Assembly: GCA_038231435.1 (NCBI GenBank)
Contig: JBBRLJ010000005.1
Coordinates: forward strand, 32,001 to 96,000
DNA length: 64,000 bases
Direction: 5' to 3'
Origin: Planctomycetota bacterium
GTDB taxonomy: Bacteria > Planctomycetota > UBA11346
Shown: positions 1 through 45,451 of the stretch, piece by piece
How positions within the stretch are numbered: the stretch's first letter is position 1
Layout of the letters: each line of letters begins with the position of its first letter
Position numbers and translations under genes: made by a program
The notes under the pieces: generated by a model
The model's input: the letters and a program-made list of their open reading frames with translations, nothing else
Databases searched by the model: none
What the model was told of the DNA's origin: nothing

Positions 1-861
1 GGCCGCGAGATGTCGCCCCCTGGGCCATACCGCCAGGAGCTGCACGTGAACGCCTGGGCCATGCTGCTGCCGTACGAGCTGTGGCTGGCGACCAGGGATC
101 GCGCGGTGCTCGAGGAAGCCTGGCCGCTGCTTTCCGAGGTCGCGGATTTCTGGTGCTCGCGCTGCACGCTCGGCGCCGATGGGGCCTGGCACCTCCTACG
201 CGCGCTCGGCCCGGACGAGAGCGTGCACGAGAATCCCAGCCACCCGCAGCTCTGCGACGACCACCTCACCACCAGCCTGGCGCTGCGCGCGGCCTTGCGC
301 GCCGCCATCGCGGCCGCGGGCGAGCTCGGGCGCGAGGCGCCGCCGGAATGGCGCGTGGTCGCGGACGGGGTGCGGATCCTCGAGCCCGGCGCTGACGGCG
401 TGATCCCCGAATACGCCGGCTACAACGGCCACCCGATCAAGCAGGCCGACGTCATCCTGGCCTTCTATCCGCTCGGGCACCGGATGCCTGCCGACGCCAT
501 CGCGGCGAACCTCGCCTATTACCACGCGCGCATGGAGTGCGGGCCGCTGATGAGCGAACAGATCGAGGCCGCGGTGCGCTTCCAGCTCGGCCGCGAGCCG
601 CGCGAGGCGGTGCTCGCCGATCTGCTGCGTGAGTACCGGCGCTGCGTTCGCGGCCCCTTTCACGTGCCTTACGAGGTCAGCTGCAACTCCAACAGCCTGA
701 TGCTCACCGCCTGCGGCGGACTGGTGCAGGCGTTGGCCTGCGGCTGGTGGGACTACCGGCGGCCCGGAGATGACGCGGCGCTGATTCCACGGTTGGGATG
801 CGCTGATGCCGCGCCCGGCGTCAGCGCATCCACGCGTGCCGCCGGCGCGGCACGCACCTGA
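1..861 (+). CDS. Glycoside hydrolase family 65 protein, C-terminal part (5' end outside the window)
   Basis: Frame is open from position 1. GH65-type motifs GPDE (catalytic Glu region) and IKQADV, plus 'LSEVADFWCSR' helix. Confidence 0.8.
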   Translation, partial: GREMSPPGPYRQELHVNAWAMLLPYELWLATRDRAVLEEAWPLLSEVADFWCSRCTLGADGAWHLLRALGPDESVHENPSHPQLCDDHLTTSLALRAALRAAIAAAGELGREAPPEWRVVADGVRILEPGADGVIPEYAGYNGHPIKQADVILAFYPLGHRMPADAIAANLAYYHARMECGPLMSEQIEAAVRFQLGREPREAVLADLLREYRRCVRGPFHVPYEVSCNSNSLMLTACGGLVQALACGWWDYRRPGDDAALIPRLGCADAAPGVSASTRAAGAART

Positions 862-17169: not shown

Positions 17170-20166
17170 TCAGCCGCGTCGACGCCGCCGCGCGCCGAGC
17201 ATACGCCCCAGCCCTGTTCCCATCCAGAGCCCGAGTCCCATGACCAGAACCGCCAGGCCCGAGCCCGGTCCGCACGAGCGTCCGGACGCGGCCGTCGGAG
17301 CCGCGCCCGAACCACCCGCGGTGCCCGCGCCAGAGAGCCAGGTAACCTGGTTGTCGCTCGTGGTCGCGGCGAACGAGGGCAGGCCAGAGTTGCTGGCGGC
17401 GCCGAGGGGGATGGCGGCGATCACCGTTCCGGCCGAACTCATCCCGGTGACCAGCACGGTGTAGTCGGTGCCCGCGCCGATAACGGTCGCGGCCAATGGG
17501 CCGCCGGCGGTTCCGGAGAGCAGCAGATCGGCGGCCGAGAAATCGCTGACCGCGGCGCTGAAATGCACGCTGAAGAGGATCACCGGCGCACGCGTCGGAT
17601 CCGGCTGGCTCGGATGCTGGTCGATGGTGACGGTCGGGCTGCCGACGCCCGGAGGCACGAAGGTGACGGTGTTGTCGGTGCTGGTGCTCACCGCCGAGGG
17701 ATGGCCGTTGGCCAGGGCGGCGTCGGCGGGGATGCTCGCGACCACCGTTCCGCCGCTGGTCATGCCGCTGACGTTCACCGTCCAGGTGGTCCCGCTACCA
17801 CTGACCACTGCGCTGAATGGGCCGCTGGCGGTGCTGCCCGCGAAACTCAGGTCTGCGCCGCTGAATCCACTGACCGGAGAGCTGAACATCACCGTGAACA
17901 CCAACGGACTGCTGATCGCTGGGTCCGCCTGTCCGCCAGCCTGGTTGATGGTCACGCCCGGGCCTGCGCTGTCGTAGACGCGTGTGAACACCGCTGAATT
18001 GCAGGCGAAGCCGCCGGAGTTAGCTGCGCCTGAAGCGACTTCGACGCGAACGGTTCCCGGGTTCGTCGGCGTCAGCGTCGCGGTGTAGGTCGAGCCGCTG
18101 CCCGCGAAGCCACTGAGCGTGCCGTTGGTGACGGCGATGTCGCCCGCGGTGAAGTCACCGACCGCGGTGGAGAACGCGAACGTCAGGGGGATGGCTCGCG
18201 AGTGCGTGGGATCGGGCGCGCTGGACGCGATCGTCGCGATCAGTGAACTTTGGGTGAGCACGATCGGGGTCTCCGGGAAGCTGCCCACCGAGAACGAGCG
18301 CAGCGCCTGCGTGACATCGAGGAACCCGTCCTTGCGCACGCGGATGGAGCCGACCACCACGTTGCTGATCACCAGGCGGTACACGCCGTACGCGACCTCG
18401 GTGAAGGGCAAGGCGTCGGAGGCGTTGAGGCCGAACGACACGCTGGCGCCGGTGATTTTGCCGCCCGAGCCGTCGGTGAGCGTGACGTACGCGCCACCGA
18501 CGGTGAGATCGAGATCGGAATTGTTCACCAGCGTGAGGTGCACGTAGCCGAGCTGCCGGCCCGGCGTTCCGGGCGGGCTGAGCGAATAGGTGAACGAGTC
18601 GGTGGTATCGCCGCTGAAGGTGCTGACGCGGACACGCAGGATGCCAGACGGATCGGCCAATTGGGTTTCCGGTGTCGTGATCAGGACGCCGTCGACACCC
18701 CCAGAGACCTGCTTGATGCGCGTGTTGGCGCCGCTCGGCAGCGACACCACCCAGGCGTTTGCGCCGAGCGCGATGTCGACGAATTCGGAGGGCGGCGATG
18801 ACGCGGTGGTGTAATCGAGCCGGCCGTAGACCACCGGCAGCGAATAATTCGGCGGCTGCGCCCAGGCCACGGTGTTGTCGCTGCTCGTCGACGCCGCGCT
18901 CGGCTTGCCGCCGGCGGTGGCGGTAGCGGCATCGGCGGGAATGGTCGCGGTGATGGTGCCGGGGCCGGACATCCCCGACAGCGAGAGCGTGTAGCTCGCG
19001 CCGCTGCCGGTGAGGGTGCGGATGATCGGCTGCGGCGACGCGCTCGACAGCACCACATCGGATGCGGTGAAGCCGCTGACCGGCGCGCTGAAGGTGATCG
19101 CGAAATCCACCGGATACGTATTCGCCGGATCGGTTTGGCCAGGAGCCTGGTCGATGGTCACGGTCGGACCGCCCGCGTCAGGGGTGACGGTGATCAAGTT
19201 GGACGCGGCGTTGGCGATGCCGGCGGAGTCGCTGGCGACACCAGCGGCTACCGACACCTGCACGGTCGCGCCGGTGGGGATGATCTGCGCGAGATAATCC
19301 TGCGAGCCGCCGTCGAAGCTGAGCAGGGTGCCGCCGGTGACAGAGAGCTCGTTGGCGGTGAAGTCGTTGGTTGCCGCGCTCACCGGCTTGGCGAAGTGGA
19401 TCGCGATCGGGATGGGATTGGCGGCGGTGGTCGTCGCTGCGGTGGTCGAGAGCGTGACCGCGCCCGGCGTGGGATCGACCATGGTCACGGCTTGGCTGAA
19501 GAACAGCCCGGCGCGCACCGTGCCGGTGAAGCTCAGGGTGTTGTAGCCGCTCTTGGTCAGGACGATGGTGGCCGTGGTGTTGGTGCTCGAGGTGGTTGGG
19601 ATGCGGTACTGCCCGGTGCCGACCTCGGCCCCGGATACCGCGGCGCCGCCGAAAGTCAGGGCCGCTCCGGTGACCTTGGCGCCAGTCGCGAAATCAGTCA
19701 CGAACAGGTCGAGCACACCGGGATTCGCCGCGGTGTCGTCGCGGTCGATGCGCAGCGTGCACAGGCCGTAGCGGCGGTTCGGGTTGTTCACCGAATAGGT
19801 GTGCGTGTAGTCGATCGGGCTGTCGCAGAACACGAAGCTGACGATCTGGTCGGCGGGATCGTTGTAGATCTGCCAGCCCATGCGCCCGAGCGCGTCGTTG
19901 AGCGCCGCCGGCGGCGTGAACGACGAGCCGTTCTGGAGATGGAAGACGCCGCCGCTGGGATATGGGCCATCGATCACGAATCCGGTGGGCCCGCAGCTCA
20001 AGGTGATCGCCCGGAACAGCGACGTGGTGCCGACGCTGTTCACCGGCGTGTACGTGCCGTCGACATTCACCGGAGGCAGGGTCAGGTCGTAGCCTGCGGC
20101 CCGCGTCGCCATGAGCGAACCCAGGGCAAGCAGCGACAGCAGGGCGATGAGCAGGATGCGCGTCAT
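17170..20166 (-). CDS. Large secreted/surface protein with bacterial Ig-like repeats and a C-terminal Cys-TM-polyArg sorting signal
   Basis: Signal peptide; five Ig-like repeats ('FS.PVSGF...D'); two carboxypeptidase-regulatory/PEGA-like segments; tail SCGPGSG-hydrophobic helix-RRRRRG. Confidence 0.85.
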   Translation of the reverse strand: MTRILLIALLSLLALGSLMATRAAGYDLTLPPVNVDGTYTPVNSVGTTSLFRAITLSCGPTGFVIDGPYPSGGVFHLQNGSSFTPPAALNDALGRMGWQIYNDPADQIVSFVFCDSPIDYTHTYSVNNPNRRYGLCTLRIDRDDTAANPGVLDLFVTDFATGAKVTGAALTFGGAAVSGAEVGTGQYRIPTTSSTNTTATIVLTKSGYNTLSFTGTVRAGLFFSQAVTMVDPTPGAVTLSTTAATTTAANPIPIAIHFAKPVSAATNDFTANELSVTGGTLLSFDGGSQDYLAQIIPTGATVQVSVAAGVASDSAGIANAASNLITVTPDAGGPTVTIDQAPGQTDPANTYPVDFAITFSAPVSGFTASDVVLSSASPQPIIRTLTGSGASYTLSLSGMSGPGTITATIPADAATATAGGKPSAASTSSDNTVAWAQPPNYSLPVVYGRLDYTTASSPPSEFVDIALGANAWVVSLPSGANTRIKQVSGGVDGVLITTPETQLADPSGILRVRVSTFSGDTTDSFTYSLSPPGTPGRQLGYVHLTLVNNSDLDLTVGGAYVTLTDGSGGKITGASVSFGLNASDALPFTEVAYGVYRLVISNVVVGSIRVRKDGFLDVTQALRSFSVGSFPETPIVLTQSSLIATIASSAPDPTHSRAIPLTFAFSTAVGDFTAGDIAVTNGTLSGFAGSGSTYTATLTPTNPGTVRVEVASGAANSGGFACNSAVFTRVYDSAGPGVTINQAGGQADPAISSPLVFTVMFSSPVSGFSGADLSFAGSTASGPFSAVVSGSGTTWTVNVSGMTSGGTVVASIPADAALANGHPSAVSTSTDNTVTFVPPGVGSPTVTIDQHPSQPDPTRAPVILFSVHFSAAVSDFSAADLLLSGTAGGPLAATVIGAGTDYTVLVTGMSSAGTVIAAIPLGAASNSGLPSFAATTSDNQVTWLSGAGTAGGSGAAPTAASGRSCGPGSGLAVLVMGLGLWMGTGLGRMLGARRRRRG

Positions 20167-20218
20167 GGGTTCTCCGTCGTCCGGGTGACCAACAAGCCTG
20201 AATGGAAGCTGGTGCCGA

Positions 20219-21847
20219 TCAGAGATGCCAGGTGATGCCAGCGCGCACGGTCACGCCCAGCACGTTGGCGGTGCGGTCGAAGGGGGCGTCGACGCCTGCG
20301 CCGACGCCGCTGCCATAGCGCAGCTGCGCCGCGATGTCGTAGAGGATGGCGCGCTGGAAGACGCTCAGGCCGGCGGTGGCGCCGACGTACTGGTCGACGG
20401 TGGCGTTGACCAGCTCGGGATGCGCAGCGTCGGGCGCGGCGGTGACGCCGGGCAGGCCTTCGTACAGGAGCCCGCAGCGCGGCACCAACACCAGGCGCGG
20501 GAGCAGCCACACGTGCTCGTAGCCGACGCGCAGCGCGTAGCCGTCGGCGAACTTCCCGGGCGCAACGAATGGGCTGATCGGGCTGGTGACCGACGTTCCG
20601 TCGTCCAGGCGCAGCGCGCTCCAGTCGGTCCAGGTCACATCGACCGCGATGGTGTGGCGATCGTTCGGGCGCCATGCGGTGGCGATGGTCGCGCTGCTCG
20701 GGTAGGTGTAGGTCGCACCGCGGCGGGTCGAGGTCGCGGTGGAGCTGGTGACCGCGCCGGTGCCGGCGTCGCGGAACTCGCGCGCGTCGCTCTTGGCGAT
20801 CGACAGGTGCAGATCGTACTGCGGCTTCACCGTGGCGGCGAGAGTCCATTCCGCGTTCACGTGCCAGAGCGCGCCGAGCACCGCGCTGGCGCCATGCTCG
20901 ACGGTGATGCGTTGGTGTTGCGCGGCGGTGAAGGTCTCGTCGCTGACGATCGACACGGGCGGGCCGCTGTCGATGGTGGTCAGGCGTCCGCTGCTCGCGG
21001 TGTCGCGGTCGTTGTGGCTCATGCGCGTGAGATCGTCATCCCACACCAGCGCCGACGCGCCCAGCGACAGGGTCGGAGCCACATCGGCGGCGTAGCTCAC
21101 GCTCCAGCTCGACCACGCGCCACGGTTGCGGATGCGGTTGTCGGAGAAGCCCTGGGTGGTCAGCGTCGGCCCGACATCCTGGAACACCTGGTGGCTGCCG
21201 GTGGCGCGCGTGAAATCGAACTGGCGTTGCCAGGCCAGACCCACGGTCTGCTGGGTGCCGAGCACGAAGAACGGCAGAACCACGCTGGCGTGGTCGAGCG
21301 CCGCGTCGCCCTGGGTCTCCTTCGAGCCGCCGGAAGCCGTCGAACGCGCGTAATAGCCGATGTTCAAGGACAGCTCCGGACGCTCGAGCTGGGCCATGCC
21401 CGCGGGATTCCAGGTGTTGGCGGTGGCGTCGTCGGCGATGGCGGTGAACGCCCCACCCATGCCCAGCGCGCGCGCGCCAGCGCCGATCGGGATCGGGCTG
21501 CCGTCGAAGGGCACCACGGTGACGTCGACGCCCGATGCGACCCCCGCCGTGATGCACGCGATCAGCATCGACAGGAGCATCGCACCATAGGCGCGATGGG
21601 GCGGCACTCGACACAGCCCTGGGGTAGGCCCGCAGGGCCGTAGGGGCGAAGCCCCTGAACAGAAAGCAGGGGGCCCCATCGCCCCGCGATGGGGCGGGCG
21701 CCGAGAGGCGGTGGGCGGATACCATGGGCGAAGCCCATCCGCCCACGGTTTCGCCGGCCCTGCCGGCGAAACCGAGCCACGACACAGCCCGGGGGTAGGC
21801 CCGCAGGGCCGTAGGGGCGAAGCCCCTGAACAGAAAGCTCTCCTCAT
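20219..21847 (-). CDS. Outer-membrane beta-barrel, OmpP1/FadL/PorV-like (alternative start 21580)
   Basis: 'P.GAGARALGMGGAFTAIADDATA..WNPAG' N-terminal motif; amphipathic strands. ATG 21847 overlaps the upstream stop (ATGA) and reads in frame through a repeat cluster. Confidence 0.8.
   Translation of the reverse strand: MRRAFCSGASPLRPCGPTPGLCRGSVSPAGPAKPWADGLRPWYPPTASRRPPHRGAMGPPAFCSGASPLRPCGPTPGLCRVPPHRAYGAMLLSMLIACITAGVASGVDVTVVPFDGSPIPIGAGARALGMGGAFTAIADDATANTWNPAGMAQLERPELSLNIGYYARSTASGGSKETQGDAALDHASVVLPFFVLGTQQTVGLAWQRQFDFTRATGSHQVFQDVGPTLTTQGFSDNRIRNRGAWSSWSVSYAADVAPTLSLGASALVWDDDLTRMSHNDRDTASSGRLTTIDSGPPVSIVSDETFTAAQHQRITVEHGASAVLGALWHVNAEWTLAATVKPQYDLHLSIAKSDAREFRDAGTGAVTSSTATSTRRGATYTYPSSATIATAWRPNDRHTIAVDVTWTDWSALRLDDGTSVTSPISPFVAPGKFADGYALRVGYEHVWLLPRLVLVPRCGLLYEGLPGVTAAPDAAHPELVNATVDQYVGATAGLSVFQRAILYDIAAQLRYGSGVGAGVDAPFDRTANVLGVTVRAGITWHL
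21578..21838. repeat. REP/BIME-like cluster: two 59-bp direct repeats plus several GC hairpins
   Basis: 21609-21667 and 21780-21838 are identical except for 1 nt, each containing GTAGGCCCGCAGGGCC and GTAGGGGCGAAGCCCCT. Between them lie hairpins CCCCATCGC-CCC-GCGATGGGG, GTGGGCGGAT..ATCCGCCCAC and CGGTTTCGCCGGC-CCT-GCCGGCGAAACCG. Confidence 0.85.
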
Positions 21848-23669
21848 TCGCTCACCACGGTGCCGCCAGCGGCAGCGGCGCCATCGACGCGTTTCAGGCG
21901 CGCGCGGCGGTCGTCGACCTTGTCGACCTCGAGCGTGCCCTGCACGCGCTTCTCGCCCGGCAGCAGCACGCGGCCAGTGGCGGGATCGACCACGTCGGCA
22001 TCGGCCTTCATCGCGAAGAAGCGCATGCGCCCGACCACGCCGGCCTGGCGGCCGCGATCGATGATCGGTACGCCGCCGTCGCCCGCGGCGAGCGTGCCCT
22101 GCAGCACCGGGAACTCCTGGCGCAGCCGGCCCGCGACCATGGCGAAGAACGCCTGCTCCTGCGCCGGCGCCACCGCTTGCGCGTAGGCGTCGGCACTCGC
22201 CACCACCTGGCCGCTCTGCGCATGGACCAGGCGCACGAAGCATTCGACGTCGTCACGACCGCGACGCAGCGTGCCGGTGAGCACGTAGCGCGCCTTCAGC
22301 CGCTGACCGGCCTCGGCGGCGGTGAGGCGGTCGACCTGGCCAGCCTCGACCAGTTGCAGCTCGCGTCCAAGCAGCGTGTCGGCCTCGGCATCGATGATGC
22401 GGAAGCGACCATCGTCGCTCATCGAACTCAGCAGCTCGGGATCATCACCTGAGCGCACGCGGCCGCCGTCGCTCGGTGCCTGCAGCGGGATCACCAGCGC
22501 GGTCGCGCGCAGCGCGCGATCCTGCGCAGGCGTCGGCGCGACCTCGAGCGTGCGCGACTCGACCTGCGTCTGCGCCAGAACGGCATCCGCCGCGCCCGCA
22601 CGGCCGGTAGCCAGGCTGAAGCGCAGGGCGTGGGTGCCGGCGCTCAAGGGAACGGCGAGCGTGCCGCCCGCCTGGATGCCGGCGAGCTCCTGGCGCGCGA
22701 GCACCGTGCCGTCGCCATCGCTCACCGTCAGCGCGGCGACACCGTTGGCGGCCCGCGCGCTGAAGCGGTACCAGGCGCGGTCGCCGGAGATCTGCGCGCC
22801 ATCGCGCGGGCCGTCGAGGGTCAGCTCGGGCGCCGGGGGCGAGGGCAACGGCGTGACGAGCGTCACCAGAGCGACGCGCGCGGGCTGCGTCTGAGCGGTC
22901 GTCTCGGTGGAATCGGAGGAAGGAGCGAGGGTCGCCAGGCTCTCGCCCGGTGTCAGCGATACGCTGAAGGCGCCGTCGGGCGCGAGCGCCAGCGCGCGCT
23001 GGGAGCCATCGCCGGCGAGCGCCCACAACCCCTGGCCTGCGAGCGCCTGCAGGCGGCCGGTAACATCGAGCGCGCCGGCGGCGCCGGGCGCCACCTGCGT
23101 GAGGACCACGCTGCTCGCGACCCGTGGCGGCGCGGGCAGCTGGGCGGGCGCCACCGCGGGAGCGGCGGCGACGCCGCGCAGCGTGGCCAGGCGGGCGAGC
23201 AGGAACTCGGCCTTGGCGCTCGGCTCCTGGGACAGACTCAGGCGCAGCTCGCGTTCGGCATCGTCCAGGCGATTCTCCTCGATCAGCATCGCGCCCAGTT
23301 CGCGGTGCACGAAGCACTGCACGAAGTGCATGCCGTACGTGCGTGCGCGGCGGCTGTCTTCCTTACGCAGGCTGGCGGCGGTGAGGAGATCGGCCTCGGC
23401 CTCGGCCCAGAAGCCGCCCATCGCCCAGCTCACGCCGCGTTCGTAGTGCTGCCACCAGCGACCGCGGAACGGTGCGGTGGTGGTGCCGAAGGTGGCGCCG
23501 TCGACGGTTCGCGGCGCCGGTCCGCGGACCGCGCCGCAGCCGCTGATCGTAGCGATGGTGATGGCGAGCGCGCCGAAGCCCACGGCGATGAGCGCCGCGC
23601 GCGCTGTCGGCCCATGGGCGGACACCGGCATAGGCACCAGTCCGGTGGGGAGGGAAGTCTCGCGACGGT

Positions 23670-23673
<4 letters not shown>
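21844..23673 (-). CDS. Predicted lipoprotein: TPR-like N-terminus, Ig-like middle, CsgG/FlgO-like and FlgT-C-like C-terminus
   Basis: Hydrophobic stretch ending ISGC; 'FRGRWWQHYERG', 'ARTYGMHF', 'HRELG'; 'AAEAGQRLKARYVLTGTL..FVRLVHAQSGQVV'; 'IDRGRQAGV..VVDPATGRVL'. ATG overlaps the kinase stop. Confidence 0.75.
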
Positions 23674-25685
<2,012 letters not shown>

Positions 25686-26360: not shown

Positions 26361-26399
26361 GGGGCAGGCCCGCACGGGCGGTAGGGGCGGAGCCTTTGA
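26361..26399. repeat. Degenerate third copy of the 59-bp REP-like unit
   Basis: GGGGCAGGCCCGCACGGGCGGTAGGGGCGGAGCCTTTGA aligns with GGGGTAGGCCCGCAGGGCCGTAGGGGCGAAGCCCCTGA. Confidence 0.6.
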
Positions 26400-37474: not shown

Positions 37475-40027
37475 ATGGTGATGGGTACCATGATCGCACG
37501 CAAACACCTGGTCATCGTCGGCAACGGCATGGTCGGCCACAAGCTGGTCGAGCTGCTGGTGGAATCGGGCCAGCACCTGCGCTGGGACATCACCGTGTTC
37601 GGCGAGGAGCCCCGCCCCGCCTATGACCGGCTGCACCTCTCCGAGTTCTTCGCCGGACGCAGTGCCGAGCAGCTGTCGCTACTGTCCACGCCGGACTACT
37701 ACGACATCAACGGCGTCGCCCTGCGCACCGGCGCGCGTATCGCGACGATCGACCGGGCGGACAAGACCCTGGCGCTCGCCGATGGCGAGCTGGTGTCCTA
37801 CGACCGCCTGGTGCTGGCGACCGGTAGCTTCCCATTCGTTCCGCCGATCCCGGGCGCCAAGAGCTCCGGCTGCTTCGTCTACCGCACCATCGAGGATCTC
37901 GAGGCGATCCACGTTGCGGCGGCCGACAAACGCGTGGGCGTGGTGGTGGGAGGGGGCCTGCTCGGCCTCGAGGCGGCCAACGCCCTGTCGCAGCTCGGCC
38001 TGAAGACCCACGTGGTCGAATTCGCGCCGCGCCTGATGGCGGTGCAGATCGACGACGCCGGTGGCGCGATCCTGCGGCGCAAGATCGAGTCGCTCGGCGT
38101 ATCGGTCCACACCTCCAAGAGCACCGCCGAGATCGCCGCGGGCGCCGAGGGACGCGGGCTCAAACTGGTGTTCGCCGACAAGAGCGAGTTGCCCACCGAC
38201 CTGGTGGTGTTCTCGGCCGGCATCCGTCCGCGCGACGAGCTGGCGCGCGCCAGCGGCCTGACCGTGGGCGAGCGTGGCGGCATCGCTATCGACGCTTCCT
38301 GCCGCACCTCGGATCCGGCGATCTCGGCGATCGGCGAGTGCGCGCTGTGGCAGAACCGCATCTACGGCCTGGTCGCGCCCGGTTACCACATGGCTCGGGT
38401 GGTCGCCGACGATCTGGCCGAGGCCGGCCAGCCGGCCAGCTTCTCGGGCTTCGACATGAGCACCAAGCTCAAGCTCATGGGCGTGGACGTCGCCAGCTTC
38501 GGCGACGCCCACGGCGCCACCCCTGGATCGCACAGCGTGCACTTCGCCGACACCGCGGCGGAGACCTACAAGAAGCTGGTGCTCTCGCCCGACCGCAAGC
38601 GCCTGCTCGGCGGCGTGCTGATCGGAGACGCTACGGCGTACAGCCAGCTGCTGCAGATGACGCTCAATGCCCTGGCGATGCCCGACAAGCCAGAGGAGCT
38701 GATCCTGCCCGCGCGCTCCGGCGCTTCTGGCGGCAAGCCGGCCGGACTACGCGTCGCCGATCTGCCCGACGCGGCGATGATCTGCTCGTGCCACAACGTC
38801 GCCAAGCACACCATCTGCGGCGCTGTCCAGGATGGTCGCTTCACCGAGCTCGGCCAGATCAAGGCCTGCACCAAGGCCGGAACCGGCTGCGGCTCGTGCG
38901 TGCCGCTGCTCAAGGAGCTGCTCGACGACGGCATGGCCAAGGCCGGTCTCGAGGTCAGCCATGCGCTCTGCGAGCACTTCGACCAGTCGCGCCAGCAGCT
39001 CTACCACCTGGTGCGCGTGCATGGAATCCGTTCGTTCGCTGATCTGATCGCACGCCACGGCCGCGGCCGTGGCTGCGCGGTGTGCAAACCGGCGGTGGGG
39101 TCGATCCTGGCCTCGGCCTGGAACGAGCACGTGCTCGAGCCCAGCCACGCGCACCTGCAGGACACCAACGATCGCTTCCTCGCCAACATCCAGCGCGACG
39201 GCACCTACTCCGTCGTCCCCCGCGTTCCGGGCGGCGAGATCACGCCCGACCAGCTGATCGCGCTTGGCCAGGTGGCGAAGAAGTACCGCCTCTACACCAA
39301 GATCACCGGAGGCCAACGCGTCGACCTGTTCGGTGCCCGGGTTTCGGAACTGCCGCCGATCTGGGAGGAGCTGATCGCCGCCGGATTCGAATCCGGGCAC
39401 GCCTACGGCAAGGCGCTGCGCACGGTGAAGTCGTGCGTCGGCTCCACCTGGTGCCGCTATGGCGTGCAGGATGCGGTAGGTCTCGCGATCAGGCTCGAGA
39501 ATCGCTACAAGGGCTTGCGCAGCCCGCACAAGCTCAAGTCCGCCTGCTCGGGCTGCGCGCGCGAATGCGCCGAGGCCCAATCGAAGGACTTCGGGATCAT
39601 CGCCACCGAGCGCGGCTACAACCTGCACCTGTGCGGCAACGGCGGCATGAAGCCACAGCACGGCGTGCTCTTCGCCAGCGATCTGGACGAGGAACGGGCG
39701 ATCCGCTACCTCGACCGCTTCCTGATGTTCTACATCCGCACCGCCGACCGCCTCGAGCGCACGGCGACCTGGTTCAACAAGCTCGAGGGCGGCATCGACT
39801 ACCTGCGCGCGGTGATCATCGACGACTCGCTGGGCATCGCCGCCGAGCTCGAGGCCGAGATGACGGGCATCGTCGCCACCTACCAGGACGAGTGGCGGAC
39901 GGTGGTGATGGATCCGGCCAAGCGCGCGCGCTTCCGCACCTTCGTAAACAGCGACGCCGCCGATGCCTCGATCGCCACCGTGCTCGAGCGCGGGCAGCCG
40001 CGTCCGCGTGAGACCGTCTCGGCCTGA
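37475..40027 (+). CDS. nirB: NAD(P)H nitrite reductase large subunit (start may be 37490)
   Basis: GNGMVG FAD site, GGGLLGLEAA, two BFD-like Cys clusters, KSCVGSTWC and SGCAREC siroheme/4Fe-4S ligands. Confidence 0.97.
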   Translation: MVMGTMIARKHLVIVGNGMVGHKLVELLVESGQHLRWDITVFGEEPRPAYDRLHLSEFFAGRSAEQLSLLSTPDYYDINGVALRTGARIATIDRADKTLALADGELVSYDRLVLATGSFPFVPPIPGAKSSGCFVYRTIEDLEAIHVAAADKRVGVVVGGGLLGLEAANALSQLGLKTHVVEFAPRLMAVQIDDAGGAILRRKIESLGVSVHTSKSTAEIAAGAEGRGLKLVFADKSELPTDLVVFSAGIRPRDELARASGLTVGERGGIAIDASCRTSDPAISAIGECALWQNRIYGLVAPGYHMARVVADDLAEAGQPASFSGFDMSTKLKLMGVDVASFGDAHGATPGSHSVHFADTAAETYKKLVLSPDRKRLLGGVLIGDATAYSQLLQMTLNALAMPDKPEELILPARSGASGGKPAGLRVADLPDAAMICSCHNVAKHTICGAVQDGRFTELGQIKACTKAGTGCGSCVPLLKELLDDGMAKAGLEVSHALCEHFDQSRQQLYHLVRVHGIRSFADLIARHGRGRGCAVCKPAVGSILASAWNEHVLEPSHAHLQDTNDRFLANIQRDGTYSVVPRVPGGEITPDQLIALGQVAKKYRLYTKITGGQRVDLFGARVSELPPIWEELIAAGFESGHAYGKALRTVKSCVGSTWCRYGVQDAVGLAIRLENRYKGLRSPHKLKSACSGCARECAEAQSKDFGIIATERGYNLHLCGNGGMKPQHGVLFASDLDEERAIRYLDRFLMFYIRTADRLERTATWFNKLEGGIDYLRAVIIDDSLGIAAELEAEMTGIVATYQDEWRTVVMDPAKRARFRTFVNSDAADASIATVLERGQPRPRETVSA

Positions 40028-40086
40028 TCCTCGATCACTGTGCATTCTTCCGCATCTCGACCGCCACGTCCGACCACGGAGCAACC

Positions 40087-40470
40087 ATGCCCGAAGCTCT
40101 CGCGATCTCCCCGGCCCCCCCTGCGAACCTGGGCGCGCCCGAGTGCCAGCAGTGGGAAGCCATCTGCCCGATGGAGCTGATCCATCCGGACACCGGCGTC
40201 GCCGCGCTCATCCGGGGACGCCAGGTGGCGGTGGTGCGCGTGGGCGAGGACCGGATCTACGCGCTCGACAACCTCGATCCGTTCAGCAACGCGATGGTGA
40301 TCGCGCGCGGCATCGTCGGCGACCGCGTCGGCGTGCCGATCATCGCCTCGCCGATCTACAAGCAGGCGTTCGATCTGCGCACCGGCGCCTGCCTCGATCA
40401 GCCCGGCGTGACCCTGATGACCTGGCCGGCGCGGGTGGTCGATGGGCGCGTCGAGATCAGCTTCTCCTGA
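40087..40470 (+). CDS. nirD: Nitrite reductase small subunit
   Basis: 'GVAAL..G.QVA', 'N.DPFS.A.VIARGIVGD', 'ASPIYKQ.FDL.TG.CL'. Confidence 0.95.
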   Translation: MPEALAISPAPPANLGAPECQQWEAICPMELIHPDTGVAALIRGRQVAVVRVGEDRIYALDNLDPFSNAMVIARGIVGDRVGVPIIASPIYKQAFDLRTGACLDQPGVTLMTWPARVVDGRVEISFS

Positions 40471-40502
40471 AACGCCTGAAACTCCTGGCAACGAGGCACT
40501 GC

Positions 40503-41855
40503 ATGGATTCCACCCCATCCGTATCCGTCGCGAACGCCAACCCGGCGGAGGCAGCCTCGCCCGACTCGGCGGCCTCCGCCGCTGGAGCGCGGCGCATCCT
40601 TATCCTTTCGACCAGCGCGTTCACCCTGCTGTTCGCGGTGTGGCTGATGTTCGGCGTGCTCGGCATCGCCATCAAGAAGGAGTTCGCCCTGACGCCGGTG
40701 CAGTTCGGCTGGCTCACCGCGACCGCGATCCTCAGCGGCTCGCTGTTCCGTCTGCCGTTCGGCATCCTCACCGATCGCATCGGCGGCAGGCGGATGATGT
40801 CGGCGCTGCTGCTGGTCACCGCCATCCCCTGCGCCTGCGTCGGCTGGGCGCACAGCTACGCCCAGCTGCTCGGCCTGGCGTTGTGCTTCGGCATCGCGGG
40901 AAATTCATTCTCGCTCGGCATCGCCTGGAATTCGGCATGGTTCTCGCGCGAGCGCCAAGGCGTGGCGCTGGGCACCTTCGGCGCTGGCAACGTCGGCGCG
41001 TCGGTCACCAAGCTGATCGCGCCGCTGCTCATCGGCCTGATGCCCGCCGCCGGATTCCTCGGCGGCGCCATCCCGGGCGGTTGGCGCTTCGTGCCGGTGC
41101 TCTATTCCGTGCTGCTGGTCGCGATGGCGGTGGTGGTGTGGTGCCTCGCGCCGGCGCCGGATCGCCGACCCGGCGCCGGGCGGACGCTCTCCGCCATGCT
41201 CACGCCGCTGCGCGATCTGAGGGTCTGGCGCTTCGGCCTGTACTACATCGTGGTGTTCGGCGCCTACGTGGCGCTCTCGTTGTGGCTACCCAACTACTAC
41301 AAGGAGGTCTACGGCCTGCCGCTCGCGAGCTCGGCGCTGCTGACCACGCTCTTCATATTCCCCGCCAGCCTGCTGCGCCCGTTCGGCGGCTGGCTCTCCG
41401 ACCGCTACGGCGCGCGGCCGGTGACCTACGCCACCTTCATCATCATGCTGCTCGCGAGCCTGCCGCTCGCGGCGCCGGCTTCGCTCTTCACGCTGGACGT
41501 GGTCGGCTTCACCGCGCTGGTGTGCGTGCTCGGCGTGGGCATGGGCGTCGGCAAGGCCTCGGTCTACCGCTACATCCCCGACTACTTCCCCGCCGACGTC
41601 GGGGCGGTGGGCGGACTGGTCGGAACCCTGGGCGCGCTGGGCGGATTCGTCCTGCCGCTGAGCTTCGGATACCTGCAGCAGGCGACCGGCCGGCCCCAGA
41701 GCTGCTTCATGGCCCTATCCTGCCTGATCGCGGTGAGCCTGCTGTGGCTGCATGCGGTAGTGCTCGGCATCCGGCGCGGTGAACGCACCATGACAGGACT
41801 GGCTCTCGCACCGGGTGGCGTGCCGGCCGATCCCGCGAAAGCCGAAGCCGCCTGA
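40503..41855 (+). CDS. narK: Nitrate/nitrite MFS transporter (NarK/NNP family)
   Basis: 'GSLFRLPFGILTD', 'G.AG.SF..G', 'FGAGNVG', 'FGAYVA', 'RPFGGWLSDR', 'GALGGF'; sits in the nir/nas cluster. Confidence 0.9.
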   Translation: MDSTPSVSVANANPAEAASPDSAASAAGARRILILSTSAFTLLFAVWLMFGVLGIAIKKEFALTPVQFGWLTATAILSGSLFRLPFGILTDRIGGRRMMSALLLVTAIPCACVGWAHSYAQLLGLALCFGIAGNSFSLGIAWNSAWFSRERQGVALGTFGAGNVGASVTKLIAPLLIGLMPAAGFLGGAIPGGWRFVPVLYSVLLVAMAVVVWCLAPAPDRRPGAGRTLSAMLTPLRDLRVWRFGLYYIVVFGAYVALSLWLPNYYKEVYGLPLASSALLTTLFIFPASLLRPFGGWLSDRYGARPVTYATFIIMLLASLPLAAPASLFTLDVVGFTALVCVLGVGMGVGKASVYRYIPDYFPADVGAVGGLVGTLGALGGFVLPLSFGYLQQATGRPQSCFMALSCLIAVSLLWLHAVVLGIRRGERTMTGLALAPGGVPADPAKAEAA

Positions 41856-44800
41856 TGCCGCCCCGGACGATACGCCCGACCGAGGCCGTGAAGTCCATCT
41901 GCTGCTACTGCGGCACCGGCTGCGGTGTCGAGGTCAAGCGCGACGCGCGCGGGGCCCTCTCGCTGTCGGGCGATGAGAGCCATCCCACCAACCGCGGCAT
42001 GCTCTGCGCCAAGGGCAAGGCGTTGCTGCACGCAGCGCTCGCGCGAGACCAGCGCCTGCTCCAGCCGCAGGTGCGGCTCGACCGGGCGCGGCCATTCGGG
42101 CGCGCCAGCTGGGAGGCGTCGCTCGCGCACATCGCCTCCACCTTCAAGCGCATCATCGCCGAGCATGGTCCGGACGCGGTGGGCTTCTACTGCTCGGGTC
42201 AGATGCTCACCGAGGAGTACTACGTCATCAACAAGCTGGTGAAGGGCTTCATCGGCACCAACAACCTCGACACCAACTCGCGCCTGTGCATGTCCTCGGC
42301 GGTGGCTGGCTATAAACAGACGCTCGGCTCAGACAGCCCGCCGATCGCCTACGACGACATCGAGCACTGTGACACCTTCCTGGTCGCGGGCGCGAATCCC
42401 GCCTGGGCGCATCCGATCATCTGGCGGCGCGTCGAGGCTCGGCGCGCGAGCGATCCGTCGGTGCGCATCGTGGTGATCGATCCCCGACGCACTGCGACCT
42501 GCGCGGTCGCGGACCTGCACCTGCAGATCATGCCCGGAACCGACGTGGCGATGCATCTGGGCCTTACTCGGCGCCTGCGCGACATCGGAGCGGTGGATGA
42601 GGCCTTCGTGCGCGATCACGCCGATGGCTGGAGCGAGCTCGAACGCGCGTGCGAGCCCTTCACGCTCGAGCGCACCGCAGAGCTGTGCGGCGTCGACGCC
42701 GCCGACATCGCCCAGGCCGCCGACTGGCTCGGCGGCGATCGGCGCTTCCTGTCGCTGTGGACGATGGGGCTGAACCAGAGCGCGGTCGGCGTCGACAAGA
42801 ACGTCACGCTCATCAACCTCTCGCTGGTCACCGGCAAGATCGGCAGGCCGGGCTGCGGGCCGTTCAGCCTCACCGGGCAGCCCAACGCCATGGGCGGGCG
42901 CGAGGTCGGCGGGATGGCCAATCTCGCCTCGGGCCACCGCGATCTCGCCGATCCGGTGCACCGCGCCGAGATCGCCGCGCACTGGGGCGTGCCATCGGTG
43001 CCCGACAAGCCGGGGCTGACCGCGGTGGAGATGTTCCGCGCCCTGGCCGATGGCCGGCTCAAGGCGGTGTGGATCGTCGCCACCAATCCGGTCGAATCGC
43101 TGCCCGACGCGAGAGCGGTCGAGGCCGGGCTGGCGCGCGCCGAGCTGGTCGTGGTCCAGGACATCCATGCCACCGCGACCGCCGCCCACGCGCACGTGCT
43201 GCTGCCCGCCGCGACCTGGCTCGAGAAGACCGGGACCATGACCAACTCGGAGCGGCGCGTCTCGCTGCTCGGAAGGCTGCTCGACCCGCCCGGGGAGTGC
43301 CTGCCCGACAGCCGCATCTTTACGCGATTCGCCGAGGCGATGGGCTGGGGCGCCTCCTTCGCGTACCGTGACGAGGCGGAGATCTTCGCCGAGCACGCTG
43401 CGCTGACGCGCGGACGCGACTGCGACATCGGCGGACTGTCGCACCGCCGCCTGATCGAGGCCGGCGGGCTGCAGTGGCCGGTGCCCACCGATGAGCATCC
43501 CGGCACGCCGCGCCTGTTCGCCGATGGCCGCTTCCGCACCCCGGACGGGCGGGCGCGCCTGCGCTCGCCGGCCTTCGTCGACCCCGCCGGCGGCGCCAGC
43601 GGATCCGACCGGCTCTCCGCCGAGCTGCCACTGGTGCTGACCACTGGCCGCCTGCGCGATCAATGGCACACCCAGACCAAGACCGGCAAGGTCGCGAAGC
43701 TGCGCGAGCACGCGCCGCATCCGCGCTGCGAGATCCATCCAGCCGACGCCGAGGCGCGCGGCATCCGTGACGGCGACGTGGTGGTGGTCGCGAACGGGCG
43801 CGGCGAGGTCCAGGTGCTGGCCGAGGTCACCGACGCGATCAGGCGGGGCGTGGTCTTCCTGGCCATGCACTGGGGCAAGGCCAACGCCGGGGAACGCGGC
43901 CGCACCAACACCCTCACCAGTCCTGCGCTCGATCCGGTGTCGCGCGAGCCCGATCTGAAATACGCGGCAGTGCAGGTGCGCCGCCACCAGCCGGCCAGGC
44001 GGCGCATCGTCATCGTGGGCGGCGGCGCGGCGGCGCGCGCCTTCGTCGAGCGGCACCGCGCGAATGGCAGCACCGATGCGATCACCATCCTCGGCGAGGA
44101 GCGCGACCCGATCTACAACCGCGTGCTGCTGCCGCACCTGATCGGCGGCGACACCGATTTCGCGGGCATGGTCACCATGACCAGCCCGCAGCTCGCCGAA
44201 CGCGGCGTCGACTTCCGCGCTGGCACCACGGTCACGCGCATCGACCGGGCGAGCAAGCAGGTCGTTGACGCCCAGGGGGGGCGCTATCCCTACGACGTGC
44301 TGGTGCTCGCCACCGGCAGCCGCGCGGCGAAGCACTACCAGGGCCCGGTGCCGCGCTCGGGCGTCCACAGCCTACGCAAGCGCGGCGACGCCGAGGCGAT
44401 CCGCGCCCGGGCCGGACCTGGCCGCCACGCCATCATCGTCGGCGCCGGGCTGCTCGGCCTCGAGCTCGCCGACGCGCTCGCGCGCATCGGTACGCGGGTC
44501 ACGGTGCTCCAGCGCAGCGACCGTCTGATGGGCAAGCAGCTCGACGCCAAGGCATCGGGCTATCTCAACCAGGCCATGAAGGAACGGGGCGTGGACATCC
44601 GCTTCAAGGCGGATGTCGAAGAACTGCTCGGCTCGGTGCGGGTCGAAGGCGTGCGCTTGAAGGGCGGCGCCGAGCTGGCGTGCGACCTGGTGATCTTCGC
44701 CACCGGCACGGTGCCCAACGCCGAGCTCGCGCGTGTGGCGGTGCTGCAGTGCTCCGACGGCGTGATCGTCGACGAGCACATGCGCACCTCCGATCCGGCG

Positions 44801-45451
44801 ATCCACGCCATCGGCGAGGTCGCCGAATTCCGCGGCAACACCGCCGGCACAACCGCGGCGGCAGAGGAGCAGGCCCGACAGCTCGCCGAATCATTGCGCG
44901 GGAATCTCCACGCCCGCTACCGCGGCCCGGTGAACAGCAGCGTCCTCAAGGTCGAGGGTCTCAGCCTTGCGGCGATCGGACTGTCCGAGGCCGGCCCGGG
45001 CATGAGCGAGGTGGTGCTCGACGACCCGGCGCTGGGGATCTACCACAAGTGCGTGATCAAGGACGATCGTCTGGTCGGGGTGATCATGTACGGCGATACC
45101 GACCGATTCGCGGACTACCGCGAGCTGGTCGCGAAGGGCATCGAGCTGGACGACCTGCGCCCCACGCTGCTGCGGCCTTCCGCCGGCGCGCGCGCGGTCG
45201 AAGGCCGCCTGGTATGCAGCTGCAACCAGGTCGGCGAGACCACCATCATCCGCGCCATCGGCGAGGCCGCCGCCAAGGGCGCCTGCGATCTGTCGGCGGT
45301 GTGCGCGAGCACCCGCGCCGGCACCTCGTGCGGCAGCTGCCGGCCCGAGATTTCGCAGCTGATCCAGCGGATGGGAAGTCCCCGGACGCGAACGGACGCA
45401 CTCGCGGAGATCCCCGCCGCGGAGCCGACCGCGGAGGAGGCGATCGCCTGA
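41855..45451 (+). CDS. nasA: Assimilatory nitrate reductase catalytic subunit fused to an FAD/NAD(P)H oxidoreductase and a BFD-like [2Fe-2S] domain
   Basis: CCYCGTGC..C 4Fe-4S motif, NSRLCMSSA, GQPNAMGGRE, TTGRLRDQWHT; then IVGGG.A, GAGLLGLE and C-terminal CSC..CGSC. Confidence 0.92.
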   Translation: MPPRTIRPTEAVKSICCYCGTGCGVEVKRDARGALSLSGDESHPTNRGMLCAKGKALLHAALARDQRLLQPQVRLDRARPFGRASWEASLAHIASTFKRIIAEHGPDAVGFYCSGQMLTEEYYVINKLVKGFIGTNNLDTNSRLCMSSAVAGYKQTLGSDSPPIAYDDIEHCDTFLVAGANPAWAHPIIWRRVEARRASDPSVRIVVIDPRRTATCAVADLHLQIMPGTDVAMHLGLTRRLRDIGAVDEAFVRDHADGWSELERACEPFTLERTAELCGVDAADIAQAADWLGGDRRFLSLWTMGLNQSAVGVDKNVTLINLSLVTGKIGRPGCGPFSLTGQPNAMGGREVGGMANLASGHRDLADPVHRAEIAAHWGVPSVPDKPGLTAVEMFRALADGRLKAVWIVATNPVESLPDARAVEAGLARAELVVVQDIHATATAAHAHVLLPAATWLEKTGTMTNSERRVSLLGRLLDPPGECLPDSRIFTRFAEAMGWGASFAYRDEAEIFAEHAALTRGRDCDIGGLSHRRLIEAGGLQWPVPTDEHPGTPRLFADGRFRTPDGRARLRSPAFVDPAGGASGSDRLSAELPLVLTTGRLRDQWHTQTKTGKVAKLREHAPHPRCEIHPADAEARGIRDGDVVVVANGRGEVQVLAEVTDAIRRGVVFLAMHWGKANAGERGRTNTLTSPALDPVSREPDLKYAAVQVRRHQPARRRIVIVGGGAAARAFVERHRANGSTDAITILGEERDPIYNRVLLPHLIGGDTDFAGMVTMTSPQLAERGVDFRAGTTVTRIDRASKQVVDAQGGRYPYDVLVLATGSRAAKHYQGPVPRSGVHSLRKRGDAEAIRARAGPGRHAIIVGAGLLGLELADALARIGTRVTVLQRSDRLMGKQLDAKASGYLNQAMKERGVDIRFKADVEELLGSVRVEGVRLKGGAELACDLVIFATGTVPNAELARVAVLQCSDGVIVDEHMRTSDPAIHAIGEVAEFRGNTAGTTAAAEEQARQLAESLRGNLHARYRGPVNSSVLKVEGLSLAAIGLSEAGPGMSEVVLDDPALGIYHKCVIKDDRLVGVIMYGDTDRFADYRELVAKGIELDDLRPTLLRPSAGARAVEGRLVCSCNQVGETTIIRAIGEAAAKGACDLSAVCASTRAGTSCGSCRPEISQLIQRMGSPRTRTDALAEIPAAEPTAEEAIA

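Follow-up and report, generated by a model that had tools for sequence, protein, structure and literature searches.

A candidate surface-to-cytoplasm cassette with a FadL-family barrel in Planctomycetota and other phyla

The DNA analysed here, referred to as the window, is a stretch of 64,000 nucleotides from a Planctomycetota bacterium (assembly GCA_038231435.1, contig JBBRLJ010000005.1, positions 32,001 to 96,000). At 17170..25685 it carries four minus-strand open reading frames (ORFs) in tandem, which on inspection of the sequence encode a kinase, a lipoprotein, an outer-membrane barrel and an exported protein with immunoglobulin (Ig)-like repeats. They represent one form of a cassette that is conserved in several bacterial groups, and we see about an even chance that it holds an exported protein bearing a carboxypeptidase-regulatory-like (CBR) domain at the outer membrane and relays the state of this protein to a membrane kinase. 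By analogy, the cassette probably anchors the exported protein much as PorE and PorP do, and is coupled to an inner-membrane enzyme that can be exchanged. An earlier sequence-only reading had interpreted the locus as a trans-envelope signalling system, and this interpretation is partly supported by the comparisons below.

The four genes and their products

All four genes were found with the positions and shared orientation that the sequence-only reading had given them. ATGA overlaps join kinase to lipoprotein (23670-23673) and lipoprotein to barrel (21844-21847), and a gap of 52 bp separates the barrel from the Ig gene; these junctions, likewise part of that reading, are present in the sequence letters. 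A promoter and terminator scan of the locus gave no signal above shuffles. The host genome measures 5.2 Mb, has 67% G+C and is 87.6% complete. The features of the system are as follows.

23670..25685, minus strand: Hanks-type Ser/Thr kinase receptor, 671 aa; Pkinase at residues 95-348 (167 bits), transmembrane segment at 391-409, C-terminal FlgT/LpoB-like ectodomain
23673..24323, minus strand: ectodomain of the receptor (residues 455-671, approximately); paralogue of the C-terminal lipoprotein module; found on cyclase and CHAT receptors of other phyla
21844..23673, minus strand: lipoprotein, 609 aa; lipobox Cys46; weak Pfam TPR and FlgO/CsgG/LpoB matches; predicted model with pLDDT 81
Lipoprotein residues 73-165, minus strand: conserved TPR helices (predicted model)
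Lipoprotein residues 188-273 and 283-379, minus strand: two beta-sandwiches (predicted model)
Lipoprotein residues 390-520, minus strand: FlgT/LpoB-like alpha/beta domain (predicted model, fold matches)
Lipoprotein residues 525-608, minus strand: C-terminal beta domain (predicted model)
20219..21847, minus strand: FadL-family outer-membrane barrel (Toluene_X); ancestral start 21847, alternative 21580; mature protein of about 436 aa
17170..20166, minus strand: exported protein, 998 aa; signal peptide, Big_12 (three stretches), C-terminal tail; orthologues behind barrels
19471..19719, minus strand: first CBR domain of the exported protein (profile)
18244..18513, minus strand: second CBR domain of the exported protein (profile)
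17170..17300, minus strand: sorting-type tail, Cys-Gly/hydrophobic/Arg (pattern)

The kinase carries the Gly-rich loop, catalytic Lys, HRD, DxG and APE motifs of the Hanks type at residues 99, 118, 211, 231 and 261, and its Pkinase domain and single hydrophobic segment agree with the cytoplasmic kinase with one membrane pass that had been proposed. Its ectodomain and the C-terminus of the lipoprotein align at 99.9% over 187 columns, and FlgT-like modules were found only in these two among the 3946 proteins called in the genome. Judged by this alignment, the two are paralogous FlgT/LpoB-like modules.

The second gene was rightly called that of a lipoprotein, as shown by its lipobox; its Pfam matches to TPR and to FlgO/CsgG/LpoB are weak. 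The best fold matches of its two-domain C-terminus are FlgT (8z5n, 3w1e) and LpoB, and close homologues of the lipoprotein come from Planctomycetes/Planctomycetota. By the rule derived from E. coli, a lipidated Cys without Asp at position +2 is destined for the outer membrane. Here Cys46 is followed by Gly; the lipobox Cys is kept in 155 of 170 homologues, and Asp stands at +2 in none. The Pfam score against CsgG is below the cut-off and the strands of the model span 9-10 residues; CsgG is absent among the listed fold matches, which leaves kinship possible. Curlin and CsgF genes were not found in the host genome, at its 87.6% completeness, in searches whose E. coli controls were positive.

The barrel had been described as FadL/PorV-like, of which the FadL part stands, the Toluene_X match exceeding its cut-off. 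Its model (pLDDT 94) gives Z-scores of 33-35 to FadL, BamG and TodX and of 26 to PorV, and it has the FadL fold with an N-terminal hatch (366 residues superposed on FadL with rmsd 3.4, Z 34.9). In the alignment of barrel sequences, conservation is highest in the hatch region. The likeness to PorV is lower: the barrel scores 37.4 bits against a PorV/PorQ cut-off of 90, and homologues reach 55 and 64. BamG is the top Foldseek match (TM 0.64; Z 34); against the BamG model NF053685, with its cut-off of 250, the barrel scores 47.7 bits and two homologues 73 and 90.

The description of the fourth product as a secreted Ig protein with a sorting tail agrees with its signal peptide, its Big_12 matches and its Cys-Gly/hydrophobic/Arg tail. 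Its architecture comprises two blocks of unknown domain, CBR domain and Ig-like repeats. A pattern search found a similar tail on 14 proteins of the host genome, mostly exported-looking; the pattern consists of Cys-Gly-x-Gly, a hydrophobic segment and Arg, as at G000 C3 129151-131931, C8 2965-4656 and C14 45363-48206. The NCBIfam tail models (MYXO-, JDVT-, CFI-box-CTERM and kin) matched neither the exported protein nor its tail nor three orthologues, and the CFI-box-CTERM model matches one neighbour protein in locus L031. No type IX C-terminal domain (type A or B) was matched in the exported protein by Pfam or NCBIfam. An exosortase was not found in the host genome, in which secretins and five Rce1-like genes are present; no enzyme of tail processing emerged from this search. 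The Ig repeats and the tail were rejected as the conserved fourth part of the cassette, since both occur elsewhere in the host genome.

Conservation in the host's family

A gene-neighbourhood check proposed with the sequence-only reading came out in its favour: the core genes travel together both in the host's Planctomycetota family and in other phyla. Of 24 family genomes, 10 encode both barrel and lipoprotein and the rest neither, and the same search found the lipoprotein in none of 16 genomes from other families. A profile search detected the lipoprotein in 19 of 47 family genomes. Gene positions were tallied by hand over the copies with the relevant side visible; in 21 of 21 copies the receptor lies directly upstream of the lipoprotein or is separated from it by a single small ORF, and the barrel lies behind the lipoprotein in 17 of 20, in one case inverted.

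The N-terminal part of the exported protein is rarer and was found in only 7 of the 47 family genomes, all of them among the 19 with the lipoprotein. The four-gene order is whole on one contig in G002, G068, G070 and G077. Orthologues of the exported protein stand behind the barrel in these four genomes and in G001 and G072, where contig ends cut the locus, and G069 has Ig paralogues behind a barrel. Among 250 Planctomycetota genomes drawn evenly, matches outside the host's family were limited to three genomes, all from a single second family. The loci of this second family (L200-L202) show a version of the cassette composed of one or two further FlgT-like genes, the lipoprotein, the barrel and a small CBR gene.

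The cassette in other phyla

At E 1e-30 the lipoprotein profile retrieved 838 clusters, and relatives of the lipoprotein are encoded on 379 stretches of the genome collection. The best 80 of these 379 make up the other-phylum loci and belong mostly to Desulfobacterota-type deltaproteobacteria and Nitrospirota. A barrel is present in 48 of the 80 and a second FlgT-like gene in 52. Where at least 6 kb is available on both sides (27 loci), the counts are 19 for the barrel, 22 for the second FlgT-like gene and 26 for either, and a strong barrel match exists somewhere in 25 of the 26 genomes with such full-flank loci.

Domains were scanned in the products of 42 of the 54 partner genes. CHAT was found in 33, a cyclase in 32, one or both in 39, a kinase also in 2, and a caspase domain in 1; two have no enzyme. 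The CHAT His and Cys are intact in 37 of 37. Judged from these domains, the cytoplasmic enzyme is exchanged between lineages on the same ectodomain. The relay to the kinase that had been proposed is strengthened in so far as a signalling role is supported by one ectodomain carrying kinase, cyclase or CHAT protease; it is weakened by the copies that have no enzyme or no barrel.

Genes resembling extracytoplasmic function (ECF) sigma factors occur in 27 of the 80 loci and anti-sigma-like genes in 25, and one representative ECF sigma-like gene passes TIGR02937. An ECF sigma gene, a zinc-finger anti-sigma-like gene and a membrane cyclase-CHAT protein with intact His/Cys stand together in L054 (4297-8871), L082, L088, L094, L100, L106 and others. 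Many large neighbours (L032, L035, L051, L077, L080, L083, L086) combine a Peptidase_C13-like domain with propeller or Ig repeats.

CBR genes in the neighbourhood of the barrel

Surface-type proteins, a class set after the loci had been seen and defined as ORFs of at least 500 aa with surface-type Pfam domains, are encoded in 16 of 26 full-flank loci (L089 being left out of the 27). Among 25 control windows taken from these genomes, one encodes such a protein by the strict count and three by a loose one; the controls are 25 of 37, as 12 stretches shorter than 18 kb were dropped. The Fisher p-values of 1e-5 (strict) and 4e-4 (loose) overstate the case for the cassette, because the genomes are related and the class was defined with the loci in view.

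The CBR domain gives a narrower marker. With seed loci included, its profile matches a neighbour gene at 11 of the 29 loci from the family and at 23 of the 80 other loci; none of the 25 controls has such a match. Genome-wide there are 196 matches in 134 Mb, that is a chance of about 0.016 per barrel within 5 kb, and a CBR match lies no more than 5 kb from the barrel for 24 of 46 barrel matches, or 14 of 36 once those used for training are removed. This tally counts unfetched barrels as misses, another 46 weak matches are unlisted, and 12 of the 20 barrel regions were chosen after a CBR match had been seen nearby, the tally itself spanning all 46. In the second Planctomycetota family, which was not used for training, a CBR match lies 0.2-0.8 kb downstream of 4 of 4 full barrels. 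As far as profiles can tell, the conserved fourth part of the cassette is thus the CBR domain, which tracks the barrel. The link between barrel and surface protein that had been suggested therefore holds at the genomic level through the CBR domain, but not through the Ig repeats or the tail.

In L171 (1623-6323), a single ORF of 1566 aa encodes a signal, propellers, a CBR domain, a tail, two hydrophobic segments and a barrel. In L030 the CBR domain, tail and barrel share one frame, but the upstream part lies in a separate ORF, and this locus was not counted as a second fusion. Both loci (L171 1623-6323, L030 10616-12826) have the tail and a second signal-like segment between surface protein and barrel, and the shared frame is possibly that of a polyprotein. 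Stand-alone CBR genes of 80-106 aa, single or paired and without a signal peptide, also lie next to the cassette in distant lineages (L165 2468-2994, L023 4949-5520, L024 13211-13450), with further examples in L021 5729-5977, L069 11433-12432, L062 12536-12796 and L202 6266-6532. Complex prediction for the barrel with the first CBR domain scored 0.00 in two runs and speaks neither for nor against binding.

Proposed mechanism and alternatives

The cassette could work as follows. The exported protein would leave by Sec and have its tail processed, and its CBR domain would bind the barrel. From the periplasm, the conserved TPR face of the lipoprotein, about 25 residues from the lipid anchor, would bind the barrel as well, and the beta-sandwich spacers would carry the FlgT-like module inward to co-assemble with the receptor ectodomain. 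Occupancy or load of the barrel would then alter receptor clustering, turning the kinase on and adjusting the output of surface protein; elsewhere, a cyclase or CHAT protease in place of the kinase would act on the ECF sigma/anti-sigma pair.

Several observations weigh against this scheme. The evidence for the cassette is genomic or predicted throughout. The kinases of G012 and G084 are without most catalytic motifs, G016 carries the ectodomain without a kinase domain, and at the three loci of the second Planctomycetota family the lipoprotein, barrel and CBR genes have no adjoining kinase, cyclase or CHAT. No adjacent barrel was found at G015:C44, G073:C45 and G076, 22 of the 46 barrels have no CBR match inside 5 kb, and for nine fetched barrels a CBR gene lies alongside with no lipoprotein in view. 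The halves of the cassette can therefore separate, since some copies are without an adjacent barrel and some barrel-CBR pairs without a lipoprotein. Several CBR genes encode only 80-93 aa without a signal peptide, which does not agree with binding outside the cytoplasm. Finally, no ECF sigma gene adjoins the host locus, and the barrel of the host genome may be impaired by a repeat insertion (see below).

One alternative is clearly less probable than the relay, though it deserves serious weight: barrel, lipoprotein and CBR proteins would form a display or assembly unit that anchors or shuttles cargo, with the inner-membrane protein as a scaffold or optional regulator and no relay. CBR genes track the barrel even where lipoprotein or receptor is missing, enzyme-less versions exist in G016 and in the second family, BamG leads the Foldseek matches, and a surface protein is fused to the barrel in one gene. 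Such a unit would hardly call for three unrelated enzyme types on the same ectodomain with catalytic residues intact, nor for a receptor that accompanies the lipoprotein more constantly than any other gene in the family (21 of 21).

A second, unlikely reading is a sensor of small molecules or envelope stress, in which the barrel takes up or binds a hydrophobic molecule in the manner of FadL and TodX, or the lipoprotein reports its own delivery to the outer membrane; the receptor would respond, and the surface genes would be mere regulated neighbours. By Z-score the barrel is as close to FadL and TodX as to BamG, the hatch is the best conserved part of the barrel, and the ECF sigma/anti-sigma genes seen at about a third of the loci would account for targets close by. 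This leaves unexplained why one small domain, not surface proteins generally, tracks the barrel, even barrels with no receptor in view, and why a surface protein and a barrel are fused. Less probable still, and in our judgement quite improbable, are two independent neighbouring units, a periplasmic sensor pair of receptor and lipoprotein beside a pair of barrel and CBR protein, with no physical link. Each half does occur without the other, and in G012 and several other loci the barrel gene has the opposite orientation; against this, the end of the lipoprotein gene overlaps the beginning of the barrel gene in 6 of 6 relatives, and both genes are kept or lost together in 24 of 24 family genomes.

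Comparison with known systems

Cell-surface signalling by FecA-FecR-FecI uses an outer-membrane barrel, a periplasmic relay, an inner-membrane protein and an ECF sigma factor. The cassette resembles it in the first three, with an ECF sigma in about a third of other-phylum loci, and differs in its FadL-type barrel in place of a TonB-dependent transporter, its extra lipoprotein and its enzymatic output by kinase, cyclase or CHAT protease. No FecR or TonB-receptor match was found among the four genes or the listed matches of the 42 partners. LpoB is an outer-membrane lipoprotein that crosses the periplasm to switch the inner-membrane enzyme PBP1B. The cassette shares the lipoprotein fold of LpoB and the two-domain module of FlgT; unlike in LpoB and FlgT systems, both of its partners bear the module, its enzyme is cytoplasmic and no flagellar or cell-wall genes are linked.

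The TPR lipoprotein PorE, the FadL-family barrel PorP and the surface protein PG1035 form one complex (PMC9143113). The cassette is like this complex and like SprF-SprB, both from the type IX system of Bacteroidota, in having a TPR lipoprotein, a FadL barrel and a held exported protein encoded by clustered genes. PorE likewise has a carboxypeptidase-regulatory-like fold, which in the cassette sits on the cargo; the cassette lipoprotein ends in a FlgT-like module, whereas PorE ends in an OmpA peptidoglycan anchor. The cassette further differs from type IX in its inner-membrane enzyme, a barrel below the PorV/PorQ cut-offs and a cargo with a hydrophobic tail. The SprA translocon had no match in the host genome, and none in the control genomes either.

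BamG docks a surface lipoprotein (PMC12611786). BamG-BamH of the Bacteroidota BAM complex thus offers another FadL-family barrel docking a lipoprotein, and it is the top structural match of the cassette barrel; in contrast, the latter reaches 48 bits (cut-off 250), is patchy rather than universal and has receptors and surface proteins as neighbours. DdvA/DdvS of Myxococcus is also reported to pair a CHAT-related membrane protein with an ECF sigma (PMC11506125), while in the relatives of the cassette CHAT precedes the membrane segment, His and Cys are intact and the anti-sigma-like gene is separate, and the host locus has a kinase. Control by kinases is listed among the mechanisms that regulate ECF sigmas (PMC8103513). 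The cassette fails the tested hallmarks of type IX secretion, BamG, curli and TonB-dependent signalling; by analogy, it may combine anchoring of the PorP type with signalling across the envelope. No description of it was found in the literature searched, which excluded supplements and covered subscription journals thinly, so that a mention in a table is possible.

The repeat at the barrel start and other features of the window

One further feature lies within the barrel gene, outside the system.

21609..21838, minus strand: structured REP-like repeat, 230 bp, in frame just after the ancestral ATG of the barrel

The same lipoprotein/barrel overlap, followed by an ordinary signal peptide, is found in 6 of 6 relatives examined, which rules out an artefact and makes the overlap ancestral; the repeat is therefore a later in-frame insertion, placed within the signal peptide. 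The first approximately 90 codons of the barrel frame, filled by the repeat, score as non-coding (-33.6, -16.2 and -23.2 per 30 codons), and the frame after it scores +11.8 to +28.2 per full block. Translation of the barrel thus starts either at 21847, with the repeat read through, or at 21580.

The 59-nt core of the repeat has 170 genome matches of at least 40 nt at E 1e-5 and 183 at E 1e-3; by crude gene calls, 6 of the 170 lie inside genes. The repeat is hairpin-rich, is put at about 170 nt genome-wide and recurs in the window at 26361-26399. As many as 75 of the 170 core copies lie less than 400 bp from contig ends, and the repeat breaks the assembly. We take it to be like a REP element from its GTAG-hairpin make-up; the genome gave one weak match only to a Y1 transposase (G000:C28:23259-23435). 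Elsewhere in the window, 37475-45451 presumably encodes a nitrite reductase, a nitrate transporter and nitrate reductase-like proteins, judged from their N-termini.

Biological meaning

To our knowledge, few routes are established by which news from the surface reaches the cytoplasm in bacteria with two membranes, and we know of no activating input for most planctomycete Ser/Thr kinases. The cassette is a candidate for such a route in Planctomycetota, sulfate-reducer-type deltaproteobacteria and Nitrospirota. Tentatively, it could represent a widespread and distinct class of surface receptor, in which a FadL-type barrel reads a CBR ligand and a co-polymer of FlgT-like lipoprotein and receptor relays to a plug-in enzyme. 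On this reading, the ligand would sit on a large exported protein or be a tiny protein without signal peptide exported by another route, and CHAT would free the ECF sigma. If such a receptor class were real, it would be a bacterial ligand-receptor-kinase chain across both membranes. The cassette also suggests that the anchoring of proteins by FadL-family barrels extends far outside the Bacteroidota, and the membrane-bound CHAT protease beside a sigma/anti-sigma pair points to a possible non-CRISPR use of this enzyme class.

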